Positions 5,209 through 34,972 of a stretch of DNA of 41,088 bases are shown here, piece after piece; the stretch's first letter is position 1, and every line of letters begins with the position of its first letter. Source of the DNA: a virus (Duplodnaviria; Heunggongvirae; Uroviricota; Caudoviricetes); the IMG/VR virus record IMGVR_UViG_2579778622_000013, positions 1-41,088 of that record. One strand, written 5' to 3'. The notes below the pieces were generated by a model. That model searched no databases. It was not told the origin of the DNA and saw only the letters and a program-made list of their open reading frames with translations. Both the position numbers and the translations under genes were made by a program.

Positions 5209-5289
5209 AACTTGTTACCTCGGTCTGTTACCGTTGAGGTAATAATTATGCGTATCTGGTTTGATGTCAATAGATATGAGTTAAAAAAA

Positions 5290-5361: not shown

Positions 5362-5946
5362 TTATTGTTTGTTTTTTTCGTTCTGGTTGATGACAAATTC
5401 AATGTAACTTTCGATCTTTGCTTTCTCGGTTTCGGGTAACAATGCGTAGCGCGAGCGGTCATAGTTGATAGTCGCAGGGTCGTGCGGGTGAATCAGTAAT
5501 TCATAGCCATGACGCCCGAATGCGGATGCAACATTCTCCAGGGTGGAAATGGAAACGCTGACCTCATTGTTTAACAGGCGGCTGATTGTCACCTGGGCGA
5601 CGCCGGATGCGCGGTGAAGTTTTCCCTGCGTTGAAAGGTCGCGGCTTTCGCTCATCCAGCGTTCCAGGTTGTGAGCCGCCAGCTGACCAATGTCGCTTGG
5701 GCCGACAGGCTGAAAACCTTCCTGAGAAAGCGAGCGATCGATATCAAGCCAGTTACGGGGTTTATTGGCGGCAGCTTCAATTTTTCGTGCAACCTGGTCG
5801 CCGATAACCTTCTTGCCAAGAGCCCAGCGGTTTACCAGATTTGCCTGAGTTCCAAGTTTTTCTGCCATCCGCGTCTGAACACCATTGAATTCACGGTCGA
5901 TCAAGTCGTTGAGATTTTGCCTGCGGACGTCCTGGATACTTTTCAT
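5362..5946 (-). CDS. Prophage repressor (CI-like), tandem HTH, no LexA-type S24 autocleavage domain
   Basis: 194 aa; divergent from cro-like gene with three operators between; HTH-like segments near residues 25-60 and 110-150; no Ala-Gly / GDSM / Lys motifs. Confidence 0.65.
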   Translation of the reverse strand: MKSIQDVRRQNLNDLIDREFNGVQTRMAEKLGTQANLVNRWALGKKVIGDQVARKIEAAANKPRNWLDIDRSLSQEGFQPVGPSDIGQLAAHNLERWMSESRDLSTQGKLHRASGVAQVTISRLLNNEVSVSISTLENVASAFGRHGYELLIHPHDPATINYDRSRYALLPETEKAKIESYIEFVINQNEKNKQ

Positions 5947-14750: not shown

Positions 14751-14765
14751 ATACCTTTAAGGTAA
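14751..14765. promoter_or_regulatory. Operator-like palindrome ATACCTTTAAGGTAA at moron gene start
   Basis: Dyad immediately 5' of ATG 14746 on the minus strand, overlapping the RBS and a TATAAT-like hexamer. Confidence 0.4.
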
Positions 14766-14968: not shown

Positions 14969-15045
14969 TGGCGTGGCATGCAGGATTCGAACCTGCGACC
15001 AACCGCTTAGAAGTCGGTTGCTCTGTCCAACTGAGCTAATGCCAC
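14969..15045 (-). tRNA. tRNA-Arg (anticodon UCU), phage-encoded argU-like
   Basis: 77 nt with CCA; cloverleaf GTGGCAT/ATGCCAC acceptor stem, D-arm GCTC..GAGC, anticodon loop CTTCTAA, T-arm GCAGG TTCGAAT CCTGC; similar but not identical to E. coli argU as recalled. Confidence 0.85.
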
Positions 15046-32834: not shown

Positions 32835-33545
32835 TCAGAAGAACCCTGCCTTGTCGTTGATGTACTCCGCGTGCGTCTGGATATCACGCAGGCATTTGCT
32901 CACACCGACGATGTAGCAGAACATGGTGGTCAGCTCCGCCGCCGCGCCCGATACGTCGTGCCCGTCGTCCTGTAACTGGTTCAGCAGATTCATCAGCAGT
33001 GAGTTCTCCGTCAGGCCGAGAACACCAGACGGCGAGTGAATCAGGCTGCGGTAGCCGGGCTTCAGCGGGGCGCTGTAGGTTTTGTTCTCTATCTTCATTG
33101 CCTGCATCACTGCTGACGCCGTGGCGTTGGCTACCTGGTCGGCAACCATCTTTATGCGTTCTTCCTGCGGGAGCGAGTTTTTAATGTAACTTCCGGTGCG
33201 GCGGATCTGAGGAAGAACCTCACCTGTAACCCATTTACGAAAGCGGTAGGGGATAGTGCCTGGTGTCACTGCGTCGCGGCAGCGGAGGATCAGTGTGTAG
33301 AGGCCTGACTCGGAGATGATGTTGATCTCTTTTACTCGGCTGTCAAAAATTGCACGATGTTCATGCCCTATGTTGAACATAGACCTTTCATCATCATCCA
33401 GTTTTTCAAGTGCTTGGGTGACGTTTTGGATACGCAGCGCACTACAAACGTCTTGGGCTACAAACCATGGTTGGCCATCGATAATGATGGAACGGATAGG
33501 GTTAACAGATTCAAATTTGAAGATGGCAGTTTGAGCATTAGCCAT
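32835..33545 (-). CDS. Antirepressor, Bro-N/AntA-type N-terminal domain
   Basis: N-terminus MANAQTAIFKFE..IRSIIIDGQPWFVAQDVCSALRI typical of Bro-N/AntA; ATG 33545 with GGAGA RBS. Confidence 0.75.
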   Translation of the reverse strand: MANAQTAIFKFESVNPIRSIIIDGQPWFVAQDVCSALRIQNVTQALEKLDDDERSMFNIGHEHRAIFDSRVKEINIISESGLYTLILRCRDAVTPGTIPYRFRKWVTGEVLPQIRRTGSYIKNSLPQEERIKMVADQVANATASAVMQAMKIENKTYSAPLKPGYRSLIHSPSGVLGLTENSLLMNLLNQLQDDGHDVSGAAAELTTMFCYIVGVSKCLRDIQTHAEYINDKAGFF

Positions 33546-33942
33546 GGTGGTTATCTCCACTTAGTGATTTTAATCACCACCGCAACGCCAATTACTGGTG
33601 GTGAACTGGACAAGGTTGGCGTACCGGCCTAAGTGGTACCGGCGTCCTTTCGGACCCCTGCCCAGCCCACCATAATTCGGATATAGCTGTGCTTAACGCA
33701 TAAAAAAACCACGTCTGGCGTGGTATGCGCCACTTAGTAACTCGGGACGCCAATCCCGGCACTGGATTTTGCCAGTACCCGATTACTATGGCACAAGAGG
33801 AGTGCGATGTAAATTTACCGCAAAGGTAATGATAAACGCGTAGAAATATCAAAATCAACCGTATTTGGTTGATTGCGTTTAACGCTTGATCACCTGAAAG
33901 CAAGATATTACCTTTAAGGTAATGTTATTGTGAGGAAAAGCA
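33546..33942. promoter_or_regulatory. Divergent control region and long antirepressor leader
   Basis: Dyads at 33815-33829 and 33908-33922; minus-strand intrinsic terminator 33702-33724; palindrome GTGATTTTAATCAC at 33564-33577; three mutually complementary 9-mers. Confidence 0.45.
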
Positions 33943-34671
33943 ATGGAAGTTTTCTGGATAGTTGTTGGTGTGGTTGCGGTGATTATTTACGTTATCAACC
34001 AGAACAAGACTAAGATCTCTGATCGTACGGTCGTTAATCATAACAAAACGATAAAGACCGAAGATGGGGAGATAACGATTAATCGTACACAGGTGATAGA
34101 ACACACCTCTACTCAGTTTCAAAAAACTGGAGGTAATGCGCCTAATATTTCCGCACCTCCTGCTTATGATAGTGCGGTAATCCAGACATATTATAAACAG
34201 CAGGAGTTAGCAAAAGAGAGGCAACTGATTCAGCCAAAGCCATTTACAGCAGAGCTTCCACCTGGAGTGTCAACGCGTCCGGCATATCATGGAAGATTCC
34301 CTGGTGATGACACATCGTCTCAGTCACCTAAAAAAGCACCTCAGGCAGTATCAGAGCCAGCAAGAATACCTTCTGTATCGCCGCCAAAAGAAGAATCAGC
34401 TAACAGAGTTTCAAGTGGTAGCAAGCAGTGCTTGCGATGCAGAATAAATCTTCCATATGAAAAATTCAGGAAATCGTCAAAAAATCCAGATGGATTGACT
34501 AAGTGGTGTGCAAGGTGTCTCGATGGCCCAAAGAATACACGCCATATGAAGTGGTGCCCAATTTGTAATGTCCGCAGAAAACGAACAAGCTTTTACCCTA
34601 ATAATCAAAATGCGGACGGCTTAATGGCATGGTGCAAAACGTGCTGGGATGAGCACAAAGCGAAACGATAG
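33943..34671 (+). CDS. Membrane-anchored protein with tandem CxxC zinc-ribbon repeats
   Basis: N-terminal TM helix VFWIVVGVVAVIIYVI; two repeats C-x2-C..DGL..WC-x2-C at the C-terminus. Confidence 0.6.
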   Translation: MEVFWIVVGVVAVIIYVINQNKTKISDRTVVNHNKTIKTEDGEITINRTQVIEHTSTQFQKTGGNAPNISAPPAYDSAVIQTYYKQQELAKERQLIQPKPFTAELPPGVSTRPAYHGRFPGDDTSSQSPKKAPQAVSEPARIPSVSPPKEESANRVSSGSKQCLRCRINLPYEKFRKSSKNPDGLTKWCARCLDGPKNTRHMKWCPICNVRRKRTSFYPNNQNADGLMAWCKTCWDEHKAKR

Positions 34672-34694
34672 GCCGCTCTTGCGGCCTTTAAATT
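34671..34694 (+). terminator. Rho-independent terminator
   Basis: GGCCGC-TCTT-GCGGCC then TTTAAATTT. Confidence 0.55.
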
Positions 34695-34951
34695 TACCGG
34701 GTTTGTTTTCGTAATTGTTCGGCACAATAGTCGAGATGTGTTTGCAGATCCCGCATAGACATCTGTGAGCTGGTGACGTAGTTAATCAGTGCAGTCAGTT
34801 CGGCAAGTGGGCCATCGACATTAAATCCATCCTTATCGAGATCCCGGAGTAATTTCATCAAGTGCGATCCCTCCACCAGTGACCTGACGCCTCCCGGCGT
34901 GTGAATCCTTTCGGTAAATCCGTCTTCCAGTGGATAGTGATACCGCTGCAT
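34694..34951 (-). CDS. Small protein homologous to the antirepressor C-terminal domain; LexA-boxed (candidate SOS antirepressor)
   Basis: 85 aa from ATG 34951 with GGAGA RBS; TPGGVRSLVEGSHLMKLLRDLDKDGFNVDGPLAELT..MRDLQTHLDY parallels the Ant C-terminus SPSGVLGLTENSLLMNLLNQLQDDGHDVSGAAAELT..LRDIQTHAEY. Confidence 0.6.
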   Translation of the reverse strand: MQRYHYPLEDGFTERIHTPGGVRSLVEGSHLMKLLRDLDKDGFNVDGPLAELTALINYVTSSQMSMRDLQTHLDYCAEQLRKQTR

Positions 34952-34972
34952 CTTATCTTCTCCATGCAATAA

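Follow-up and report, generated by a model that had tools for sequence, protein, structure and literature searches.

The leader of the antirepressor gene ant in the window (the whole stretch of 41,088 nucleotides analysed here, from an epsilon15/phiV10-like Uetakevirus prophage of E. coli) is very probably an anti-immunity module of the P1/P7 immI type, also called the 'IsrK-C4' module. The module is functional-looking and real, but it is already known: it is an ordinary copy of the RNA immunity module first described in phage P1, and it introduces no new principle. The P1/P7 c4 type has been named the 'IsrK-C4 immunity system' (PMC3632133), and the c4 and c4-a1b1 motifs have been described before (PMC2864571). 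For the copy in the window, membership of two RNA families, the predicted fold, the complementarity of the segments and their three-way co-variation, the gene context and the overlap of segment b2 with the ribosome-binding site are established here.

The isrK and C4 models of Rfam both match above their curated thresholds, in tandem and on the minus strand, the same strand as ant (Table 1). The first match has the layout of an IsrK-type RNA, with two 5' hairpins, a linker and a Rho-independent terminator, and C4 lies directly downstream of it; the c4-a1b1 model (RF03163) reaches 43.4 bits at 33791..33739, just below its gathering score of 46.7, over a stretch that is covered by the isrK match. 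The protein encoded downstream matches the Bro-N domain of Pfam (E = 9.5e-20) and PHROG 130, 'anti-repressor Ant' (E = 4.8e-56), which places the C4 RNA in the leader of an antirepressor operon. It has been reported that over-expression of the antirepressor found at the same position in phage ZX5 favours the lytic cycle (PMC9782041). The whole leader (261 nt) folds with a z-score of -4.8 relative to shuffled sequences. A riboswitch or other ligand-sensing leader was also considered, and no known aptamer family was matched: Rfam returned isrK, C4 and c4-a1b1 alone, besides a CRISPR repeat at E = 0.49.

Table 1. Coordinates of the elements of the ant leader and of the features around it in the window.
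Feature	Position	Strand	Description
Operator-like palindrome	33814..33830	none	ATTACC-N5-GGTAAA; core TTACCnnnnnGGTAA at 33815-33829; sequence confirmed
Promoter of the IsrK-C4-ant transcript	33785..33813	minus	Predicted, sigma-70 type; -35 TTTACA at 33813..33808, 17-nt spacer; 9/12 consensus matches
TG-extended -10 hexamer	33790..33785	minus	CATAGT; predicted start ~33778
IsrK-type leader RNA ('c4-a1b1' element)	33702..33778	minus	Rfam RF01394, 63.5 bits (gathering score 50)
a1	33747..33754	minus	AUUGGCGU, loop of IsrK hairpin 2; complement of C4 a'
b1	33730..33738	minus	ACUAAGUGG, IsrK linker; complement of C4 b' loop; first 9-mer of the first-pass annotation
Outer helix bridging the terminator	33694..33732	minus	Predicted; UGGCGCAU (33732..33725) with AUGCGUUA (33701..33694)
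IsrK intrinsic terminator	33702..33724	minus	Stem ACCACG/CGUGGU, loop CCAGA, U-run
C4 antisense RNA gene	33594..33677	minus	Rfam RF01695, 66.0 bits (gathering score 45); match covers the full model (87 positions, 1-87)
b'	33628..33636	minus	CCACUUAGG, loop of C4 hairpin 2, specificity determinant; middle 9-mer of the first-pass annotation
a'	33616..33622	minus	ACGCCAA, single-stranded C4 junction
a2	33585..33592	minus	AUUGGCGU, just 3' of C4; complement of a'
Long-range helix	33544..33580	minus	Predicted; GGUGGUG (33580..33575) / CACCAU (33549..33544); alignment A1 pairs 20-60 to 26-54
Local palindrome	33564..33577	minus	GUGAUUAAAAUCAC, directly 5' of b2, shares the first two bases of b2
b2	33557..33565	minus	ACUAAGUGG, target of the b' loop; third 9-mer of the first-pass annotation
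Shine-Dalgarno sequence of ant	33555..33558	minus	GGAG, 9 nt before the AUG; read from sequence
ant	32835..33545	minus	236-aa Bro-N antirepressor, the regulated gene; ATG at 33545..33543

The first-pass annotation had proposed that ant is under the control of its leader RNA, with a set of complementary segments as the working parts. A direct check of the sequence recovered every feature it had named, and the proposal itself is supported by the Rfam matches and by co-variation. The three 9-mers it described read CCACTTAGT (at the sites of b1 and b2) and CCTAAGTGG (at the site of b') on the plus strand, and they follow one another as ACUAAGUGG, CCACUUAGG and ACUAAGUGG in the minus-strand RNA. 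The pairing attributed to the middle segment with either flank holds at eight of the nine positions, the ninth being a G-A mismatch. A second triple, a1/a'/a2 (AUUGGCG / ACGCCAA / AUUGGCG), and the C4 fold had escaped that annotation. On the plus strand of the window, CCACTTAG occurs at the sites of b1 and b2 only, and CTAAGTGG solely at 33629 and 34499. The fourth copy of ACTAAGTGG (plus strand, position 34498, within a divergent 242-aa ORF) was considered as an extra C4 target and dropped, as it shows no co-variation: TL-2011b has a different b' loop and yet an unchanged site, and ~0.3 copies are expected by chance.

The terminator that had been placed inside the leader is borne out, since a scan for terminators found the same hairpin (33724..33708; six pairs, four of them G-C, and a loop of 5) followed by the U-run, within the isrK match, and its stem co-varies among relatives. 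The outer helix that would bridge this terminator is predicted separately in 15 of 15 loci with a different sequence in each, and it is possible only in read-through transcripts; it was assessed by independent folds of each sequence, the MAFFT alignment of the terminator region (A2) having mis-registered the helix.

The C4 match fits the Rfam consensus, in which a long closing stem surrounds two hairpins and both b' (the loop of hairpin 2) and a' (the junction) are unpaired. By homology with the annotated ends of the 77-nt c4 RNA of P1, the mature C4 is predicted to span 33671..33597 (75 nt); in the minimum-energy fold of this predicted RNA (-43.1 kcal/mol), both ACCACUUAG and ACGCCAA are unpaired. 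A reading frame that begins with an AUG at the 5' end of C4 runs for 14 codons and stops in the b' loop. In P1, RNase P cleaves the 5' end of the c4 precursor, and the product, of ~77 nt, is stable and represses in trans. The middle 9-mer, previously read as a mere arm of a switch within one transcript, is actually the loop of a structured RNA of ~75 nt, the kind that in P1 is excised and trans-acting.

The 9-mer next to the ribosome-binding site had been singled out as the segment whose pairing matters for ant, and it is indeed the target: b2 complements b' and overlaps the Shine-Dalgarno sequence of ant by 2 nt. The complement between a' and a2 is 7 nt long and that between b' and b2 is 8 nt long, and the duplex energy of b'-b2 is -12.6 kcal/mol, as against -6.3 kcal/mol with a phiV10-type target. 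In relatives, a2 is presented by a co-varying hairpin, which is weak in the window. The palindrome upstream of the ribosome-binding site was likewise confirmed (GTGATTTTAATCAC at 33564-33577), and a comparison by eye places hairpins of differing sequence before b2 in P1, ZX5, P27, SfV and Stx1_14040. The predicted long-range helix encloses b2 and the Shine-Dalgarno sequence and pairs the A and the U of the start codon; five of its seven pairs are kept in 13 to 15 of the 15 sequences, and it is also part of the minimum-energy fold.

Folding, which had been suggested as a check on the alternative pairing of the 9-mers, does not predict it, and all the domains fold independently. The contact between loop and target would be a pseudoknot or kissing interaction, which lies beyond such methods. 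Cofolding of C4 with its targets (RNAcofold) gave no intermolecular pairs, loop contacts being outside its model, and duplexfold applied to the whole molecules was uninformative, as the unfolding of the long stems dominates the result. Pairing was assessed by means of co-variation and of duplex energies of short oligonucleotides.

What tells most decisively against chance is that the three segments change together across 15 related loci. The b' loop varies across the 15 phages, and b1 and b2 change along with it: a perfect complement of at least 8 nt between b' and its own partner is found for b1 in 11 of the 15 and for b2 in 12 of the 15, and in none of the 210 mismatched pairings, where the maximum is 7 nt. 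The longest perfect complement of b' has a mean length of 7.5 nt with the IsrK of the same phage versus 4.1 nt with that of the others, and of 8.0 nt with its own leader versus 4.5 nt with the others. In P1, Stx1_14040, EH1910 and the Klebsiella phage ST512, a' also changes together with a1 and a2. The b' loops were located by anchoring on stem sequences, given that extraction from minimum-energy folds took the wrong loop in several phages. The tandem of an isrK-type element and C4 is present in 15 of 15 related phage loci; that of P1 consists of a c4-a1b1 match above the gathering score (the isrK match is weak) and then C4. In P1 and in each of the 13 enterobacterial relatives, 22 to 25 nt separate isrK from C4; the gap is 69 nt in Aaphi23, where the isrK match is weak.

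The promoter predicted for the IsrK-C4-ant transcript is kept in relatives, and its -10 hexamer aligns with that of the P1 promoter P1c4/P51b; promoter-like matches in the region as a whole show no excess over shuffled sequence. The Rfam isrK model starts at 33778, the predicted start of transcription, and with this start the leader, previously taken to be ~270 nt long, becomes a 5' UTR of ~233 nt. The 'operator-like' site described upstream is present (TTACCGCAAAGGTAA at 33815-33829), but its motif recurs across the phage at 16 dispersed sites, this one included (0.7 expected in the window), and a putative helix-turn-helix repressor gene is flanked by four of them. Counted from the predicted IsrK start, the palindrome occupies positions -51..-37, directly next to the -35 hexamer. 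In ZX5, TL-2011b and two Klebsiella phages the same motif precedes isrK by 51 nt; a protein presumably binds at this putative operator. A second promoter further upstream (TTGATT-18 nt-TATCAT, 33858..33829, a 9/12 match that mimics the tandem P51a/P51b of P1) was discarded, as it is not conserved in ZX5 and phiV10.

By analogy with P1, P7 and Gifsy-1, the module would work through the processing of C4, its action in trans, a translational block and a decoy role for IsrK. Transcription would start at ~33778, from a promoter with one of the dispersed operator palindromes immediately upstream, and some transcripts would end at the terminator (33724..33702), yielding a short, ~77-nt IsrK RNA in which a1 and b1 are both present. 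The read-through RNA would carry C4 (33677..33594), which may be excised, as in P1, to a stable RNA of ~75 nt, with b' (CCACUUAG) exposed in the loop of a hairpin and a' (ACGCCAA) at an unpaired junction. By pairing with a2 and b2 in the ant leader, C4 would block the ribosome, whose exclusion is proposed because b2 overlaps the Shine-Dalgarno sequence GGAG; no antirepressor would then be made and the prophage repressor would stay active, with the specificity of immunity set by the sequence of b'. The short IsrK is a candidate competitor because its a and b sequences are those of the target, and by competing either for C4 itself or for the part of the long transcript that contains C4, it may relieve repression as in Gifsy-1. 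The c4 mechanism of P1 is outlined in PMC12197685, which cites Citron and Schuster (1990), and in Gifsy-1 the IsrK terminator, the read-through, the processed RNA STnc1160 and the trans activation of translation by the short RNA, which is known from that phage only, have all been described (PMC4825925). The P1 route, in which a block of icd translation has a polar effect on ant, and the Gifsy-1 route, through the coupling of orf45 to anrP, cannot apply literally here, because an icd/orf45-like ORF coupled to ant is absent from the window.

An extension of this scheme, which we put forward only tentatively and regard as unlikely, is that in the epsilon15-like lineage the module, lacking a coupling ORF, has an extra cis layer in the form of the helix GGUGGUG/CACCAU(G), which would hide the ant start codon. 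If this were true, the 5' strand of the helix would alternatively pair with the C4 3' strand UCACCACC, and the folding or excision of C4 would be coupled to the opening and closing of the ribosome-binding site. The ratio between terminated IsrK (the decoy) and read-through C4 (the repressor), set at a single leaky terminator, would then make a self-contained toggle for prophage induction.

The role of C4 may also be looked at in terms of transcription, as in phage P4: the RNA would bind the nascent a1/b1 and a2/b2 segments and cause premature termination, whether at the terminator of IsrK or at a Rho-dependent site in ant, and would not act mainly by blocking the ribosome. In P4, transcription is terminated prematurely through the pairing of the homologous CI RNA with seqA and seqC (PMC4825925; PMC3632133), and the authors of the Gifsy-1 study raise this possibility for STnc1160, with the IsrK terminator as its site of action (PMC4825925). 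In the window the terminator stem lies just 5 nt downstream of b1, and ant mRNA, if untranslated, would be exposed to Rho. Nonetheless, the overlap of b2 with the Shine-Dalgarno sequence, seen here and in most relatives, fits a translational block, the effect of IsrK in Gifsy-1 persisted despite constitutive STnc1160 (PMC4825925), and inspection of the sequence revealed no convincing anti-terminator pairing that C4 could remove. Termination as the main route is a possibility to which we give a rather low weight, and the two modes of action are compatible, not mutually exclusive.

The explanation offered by the first-pass annotation was a purely cis RNA switch, in which the middle segment toggles access to the ribosome-binding site and no processed RNA acts in trans. 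It is true that all three segments are on one transcript before processing, that the isrK-orf45 RNA of Gifsy-1 adopts two conformers in vitro and that cis mutations in IsrK raise translation (PMC4825925), and that the leader segment GGUGGUGA has two alternative pairing partners, the start-codon region and the C4 3' strand UCACCACC. The middle segment, however, forms the loop of the C4 fold, which is defined by the family and very stable (-43 kcal/mol), the domains are all separate in both centroid and minimum-energy folds, and a hypervariable b' with matched targets is the pattern of a trans-acting specificity determinant; c4 of P1/P7 is trans-acting and defines heteroimmunity (PMC12197685). 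A switch of this kind is, in our judgement, improbable. Even harder to sustain, to the point of being scarcely credible, is the idea that the repeats are due to chance or to a small protein-coding ORF over the leader: an open frame does run across it (103 aa, 33903..33592), a further candidate is the 'ash family protein' annotated in ZX5, and GenBank annotators have called small CDSs here in ZX5, VT2-Sakai and P27, yet the leader frames, including the ZX5 CDS, have zero matches in Pfam and NCBIfam, the frame from the C4 AUG is closed after its 14 codons in the window, the substitutions are compensatory at the RNA level, and two covariance models score above threshold.

Among the known systems closest to this IsrK-C4 module is the immI region of P1/P7 (Citron and Schuster, 1990; RF01695, RF03163). 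The two have the same order of parts: a promoter close to an operator (a putative one in the window), then a1 and b1, a hairpin resembling a terminator, c4, a2, b2 at the ribosome-binding site and an antirepressor. The RNA fold family is the same, with b' in a loop and a' in a junction. The P1 record gives Oc4, P2c4/P1c4, a1, b1, c4 RNA, a2, b2 and icd-ant, in an order and with a spacing similar to those found here, and between the -10 hexamer and the start codon the window, ZX5 and P1 align without any change of order. The distances in P1 and in the window are, respectively, 7 and 9 nt for a1-b1, 3 and 1 nt for c4-a2, 22 and 20 nt for a2-b2, and 10 and 11 nt for b2-AUG. The a and b sequences differ (UUGACAG and GUUAGUGA in P1, UUGGCGU and CUAAGUGG in the window). 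In P1 the target of C4 is the ribosome-binding site of icd, which is coupled to ant, whereas in the window there is no ORF between b2 and ant; given that no icd/orf45 leader ORF is present, b2 lies directly on the ribosome-binding site of ant. P1 also differs in having Ant1/Ant2 in place of a single 236-aa Bro-N Ant, an asymmetric C1 operator in place of a palindrome of 15-17 bp upstream of the -35, and the life of a plasmid prophage in place of that of an integrating podovirus.

The isrK-orf45-anrP region of Gifsy-1 in Salmonella (RF01394) has in common with the window the IsrK promoter, a terminator that would be leaky here too, a C4-like RNA that would likewise be processed, a Bro/Ant-type regulator and the complementarity of IsrK to a downstream element. 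There, a 45-codon ORF starts at the 5' AUG of the C4-like RNA and is coupled to anrP, whereas the frame at this place in the window has 14 codons and ant has its own Shine-Dalgarno sequence; a counterpart of the downstream effects in Gifsy-1 (the AntQ antiterminator) was not identified in the window. In the immunity system of satellite phage P4 (seqA, CI RNA/seqB, seqC) and the CA RNA anti-immunity system of N15, a processed leader RNA pairs with complements upstream and downstream, and both have been considered structural homologues of IsrK/C4 (PMC3632133). What P4 controls in this way, through premature transcription termination, is its replication genes and not the ribosome-binding site of an antirepressor.

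With the immI region of P22 (mnt, arc, ant, sar) the window would share the post-transcriptional antisense control of an antirepressor, in a temperate podovirus and near the tailspike gene; the sar RNA, however, is encoded on the opposite strand over the ribosome-binding site of ant, while C4 is on the same strand as its target. The control of ant had been suggested beforehand to be perhaps an 'analogous but different solution' to that of P22. It is different in that it does not use Arc/Mnt and sar: sar gave no match at the gathering threshold in the whole window, nor over 33450-34000 with E allowed to reach 1, a look for genes resembling arc or mnt found none, and the stretch from the promoter to ant contains no small ORF on their strand. 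The solution is not a novel one, though, as the two Rfam models identify it with the already described c4 system of P1/P7.

The module would give epsilon15/phiV10-like prophages a second, RNA-based layer of immunity. The b' specificity of the window is unlike that of near-identical phages, and because the specificity loop differs between phages that are otherwise ~97% identical, heteroimmunity classes are predicted within the genus. The model predicts that a swap of b' from CCACUUAG to CCUUUUAG would switch the specificity to the phiV10/ZX5 class. As to annotation, the GenBank records of ZX5, TL-2011b and phiV10, which were checked, carry no RNA gene at the leader, and among the RefSeq E. coli matches listed the annotation under the match is Bro-N or hypothetical protein only; the leader should be labelled as IsrK plus C4 antisense RNA, and the spurious small CDSs called over it should be dropped. 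The same leader is present in 455 of 5,426 complete E. coli genomes.

The 261-nt leader of ant folds into a far more structured RNA than shuffled controls (z = -4.8). When the whole window was scanned against Rfam at curated thresholds, three matches were obtained; two of them, isrK and the C4 antisense RNA, follow each other within this leader in the sense of ant, and the third, a tRNA, lies elsewhere. A looser scan adds c4-a1b1 (RF03163, titled 'a1, b1 targets of C4 antisense RNA') at 33791..33739, which scores 43.4 bits, slightly below its threshold of 46.7. Weinberg et al. were the ones to define both the c4 and the c4-a1b1 motif (PMC2864571), and the pair is termed the 'IsrK-C4 immunity system' by Barquist et al., who relate it to the seqA/CI RNA of P4 and to N15 (PMC3632133).

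The first-pass annotation had described in this leader an internal terminator and three mutually complementary 9-mers, and had proposed a possible RNA switch. Direct sequence check found every one of these elements in place, and the features observed are confirmed as real. In the minus-strand RNA the segments are, in order, ACUAAGUGG, CCACUUAGG and ACUAAGUGG; 8 Watson-Crick pairs are possible between the middle one and either of its neighbours, and an independent terminator scan recovers the hairpin (33724..33708, six pairs, followed by a U run). As for the interpretation, RNA-based control, a terminated leader RNA and a target at the ribosome-binding site all stand; what changes is that the system is already known and is recognised by curated models. 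The internal terminator is that of IsrK, the middle 9-mer is b', the loop of C4 hairpin 2, and the upstream and downstream 9-mers are b1, in the IsrK linker, and b2. A second complementary triple, a1/a'/a2, had been overlooked. By homology with the annotated P1 RNA, mature C4 should span 33671..33597 (75 nt), and in its predicted fold (-43 kcal/mol) both b' and a' are single-stranded.

Features of the ant leader in the window
Feature	Sequence	Position	Strand	Remark
Operator-like site	TTACCGCAAAGGTAA	33815-33829		direct check
Promoter	TTTACA, 17 nt, TG-CATAGT	33813..33785	minus	sequence; kept in relatives
isrK (RF01394)		33778..33702	minus	63.5 bits; gathering score 50
a1	AUUGGCG	33754..33748	minus	loop of IsrK hairpin 2
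Outer 9-mers (b1, b2)	CCACTTAGT	33730-33738 and 33557-33565		plus-strand sequence; direct check
Hairpin and A run (U on minus strand)	CCACGTCTGGCGTGG	33702-33723		direct check
C4 antisense RNA (RF01695)		33677..33594	minus	66 bits; gathering score 45
Middle 9-mer (b')	CCTAAGTGG	33628-33636		plus-strand sequence; direct check
a'	ACGCCAA	33622..33616	minus	single-stranded junction of C4
a2	AUUGGCG	33592..33586	minus	directly 3' of C4
Palindrome	GTGATTTTAATCAC	33564-33577		direct check
ant Shine-Dalgarno	GGAG	33558..33555	minus	9 nt ahead of AUG; overlapped by b2
ant ATG		33545	minus	direct check

Short complementary segments may arise by chance, and this explanation was weighed by comparison across phages. 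The loci of P1 and of 15 relatives were fetched: ZX5, TL-2011b, phiV10, two Klebsiella phages, a Yersinia phage, Salmonella 118970_sal3, VT2-Sakai, P27, IdasGreatGrand, Ayreon, SfV, two Stx phages and Aaphi23. Every relative carries the tandem of isrK followed by C4, the isrK match of Aaphi23 being weak; in P1 the element ahead of C4 is c4-a1b1, above its gathering score, and the isrK match there is weak. Since the elements of TL-2011b and phiV10 are the same as those of ZX5, these two were omitted, and the co-variation test comprised 15 loci, including the window and P1. The b' loop is distinct in nearly every phage, and b1 and b2 vary along with it.

Examples of b' and its target in different phages
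Phage	b'	Target (b1/b2)
Window	CCACUUAG	CUAAGUGG
ZX5 / phiV10	CCUUUUAG	CUAAAAGG
P27	CCUUUUUC	GAAAAAGG
SfV	CCUUGAUC	GAUCAAGG
P1	UCACUAAC	GUUAGUGA

As a control, the longest perfect complement was searched in every pairing of a C4 with a target. Its mean length was 7.5 nt between C4 and the IsrK of the same phage, against 4.1 nt with those of other phages, and 8.0 against 4.5 nt for the leader. Complements of at least 8 nt were found in 11 of 15 cognate b1 pairs and 12 of 15 cognate b2 pairs, and in none of 210 non-cognate ones; where cognate pairs lacking a long perfect match were compared by eye, they contained a G-U pair or another single difference. Most loci share the a' segment ACGCCAA; P1, both Stx phages and Klebsiella phage ST512 have another version, matched by changes in a1 and a2. 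This co-variation rules out a chance origin of the complementary segments, and it is the pattern that a trans-acting specificity determinant would show. The b' specificity of the window is not that of its close relatives ZX5, phiV10 and TL-2011b, and the cognate duplex (-12.6 kcal/mol) is predicted to be stronger than cross-pairing with the ZX5/phiV10 type (about -6.3 kcal/mol). This difference predicts a separate anti-immunity class for the phage of the window.

Further conserved structure surrounds these elements. An outer helix over the IsrK terminator (33732..33725 with 33701..33694, minus strand) was predicted independently, with differing sequences, in 15 of 15 loci (the window, L001 and L004-L016), for example GGCGCAUA/UAUGCGUU, GCGACAA/UUGUCGC and, in P1, CGGACA/UGUCCG. 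Its 5' strand begins where b1 ends, and the 3' strand directly follows the U run, so that it can form in read-through transcripts only; the Rfam isrK model does not include it. In the leader alignment of 15 loci (A1; window 33544-33596, minus strand), a co-varying hairpin after C4 presents a2, and a helix GGUGGUG:CACCAU, which involves the ant start codon in its pairing, closes around b2 and the Shine-Dalgarno. As the 3' strand of C4, UCACCACC, is a second complement of GGUGGUGA in this helix, the latter has a choice of two partners until C4 is cut out. The palindrome at 33577..33564 (minus strand) is a local hairpin immediately 5' of b2, and hairpins of other sequence were seen by eye at that place in P1, ZX5, P27, SfV and Stx1_14040.

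The GenBank annotation of P1 gives the order C1 operator Oc4, promoters P2c4 and P1c4, a1, b1, the 77-nt c4 RNA, a2, b2 and icd-ant, and an alignment of the window, ZX5 and P1 keeps one order of elements all the way between the -10 hexamer and the start codon. The intervals in P1 and the window are, respectively, 7 and 9 nt from a1 to b1, 3 and 1 nt from c4 to a2, 22 and 20 nt from a2 to b2, and 10 and 11 nt from b2 to AUG. Unlike P1 and Gifsy-1, the window has no coupled ORF of the icd or orf45 kind, and its ant has its own Shine-Dalgarno adjoining b2; the frame that begins with the AUG at 33673, at the 5' end of C4, runs for 14 codons only and ends at a UAG inside b'. The genes ant and P1 icd can be aligned over their first 11 nt (ATGGCTAATGC, 33535-33545, minus strand, and ATGGTTAATGC, L016 28471-28481, respectively), either as the remnant of a common target-site ancestor or by coincidence.

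According to PMC12197685, which cites Citron & Schuster 1990, C4 of P1 and P7 is a processed antisense RNA: by loop pairing at the ribosome-binding site of the ant-operon mRNA it blocks antirepressor synthesis, and this sets the heteroimmunity of the two phages. In Gifsy-1, IsrK is ended by its own leaky terminator, read-through yields mRNA and a processed C4-like RNA, STnc1160, and short IsrK given in trans turns translation on (PMC4825925). What this analysis shows for the window is the predicted fold, the complementarity, the co-variation and that b2 overlaps the ribosome-binding site. By analogy with the homologous systems, we infer that C4 would be processed from the same transcript as ant, act in trans and cover the ant Shine-Dalgarno by pairing with a2 and b2; a1 and b1 in IsrK would be decoy copies able to titrate C4, and the IsrK terminator would fix the ratio of IsrK to C4.

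The predicted transcription start of the promoter is the first base of the isrK model. The site next to it, earlier called operator-like, is a palindrome at -51..-37 (a putative operator). Its motif, TTACC-N5-GGTAA, is present in 16 copies across the window (one mismatch allowed; 0.7 expected), at 5228, 5290, 6002, 6050, 6387, 8333, 8395, 11831, 11849, 14751, 15368, 32748, 33815, 33908, 35028 and 38127. Nearly all copies are intergenic, and four, in two pairs, flank a putative helix-turn-helix repressor gene (5362..5946, minus strand). The window, ZX5, TL-2011b and the two Klebsiella phages have a copy exactly 51 nt upstream of isrK. Taken together, the palindromes look like a dispersed-operator regulon over most transcription units, reminiscent of the C1 operators of P1. 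A phage-borne tRNA-Arg (anticodon TCT; 14969-15045, minus strand) has copies on either side, at 14751 and 15368.

The first 25 kb of the window are about 97% identical to phiv142-3, PAS61, ZX5, HEMP4 and TL-2011b, and the genus is Uetakevirus where the fetched records name one (ZX5, phiV10). Uetakevirus comprises epsilon15/phiV10-like temperate podoviruses. The product of ant is a Bro-N protein matching the PHROG 'anti-repressor Ant', and in ZX5 over-expression of the antirepressor in the same position favours the lytic cycle (PMC9782041). The leader is present in 455 of 5,426 complete E. coli genomes, at least 99% identical in 78 of those, and is mostly unannotated or overlaid by doubtful small CDSs. 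In GenBank, such CDSs ('ash family protein', hypothetical proteins) lie over the C4 gene in ZX5 (L001 1637-1750), VT2-Sakai (L008 863-1036) and P27 (L009 906-1049). A Pfam/NCBIfam search of the small frames across the C4 gene in these three loci matched no family, and they are probably mis-annotations of the RNA gene.

Over window positions 33570-34000, TL-2011b shares the upstream flank and the promoter, the whole matched stretch being 88% identical, and carries phiV10-type b1, b' and b2 and a different Ant. Since the flank is common while the module elements and Ant differ, a mosaic or recombination boundary would lie inside the IsrK-C4 module. Upstream of ant, a 91-aa ORF (34694-34969, minus strand) matches PHROG 450, a family hit by the C-terminal part of Ant as well, and is 44% identical to the Ant C-terminal domain (residues 157-228); judging from this likeness, it is a free-standing paralogue of that domain encoded beside ant. 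By position alone, its phiV10 counterpart is the 258-nt CDS ahead of isrK, whose annotation notes a similarity to epsilon15 p19. A 242-aa Cys-rich ORF (33943-34671, plus strand), divergent from the isrK promoter, matches PHROG 6762, has weak endonuclease-VII / zinc-ribbon-like repeats and its own palindrome copy at 33908-33922. It contains a fourth copy of ACTAAGTGG (34498-34506, plus strand); TL-2011b has the identical copy despite its different C4 loop, so chance is the most likely origin. TL-2011b has the ORF at 98% identity and ZX5 and phiV10 lack it at this place, which makes an inserted accessory gene (moron) the probable explanation.
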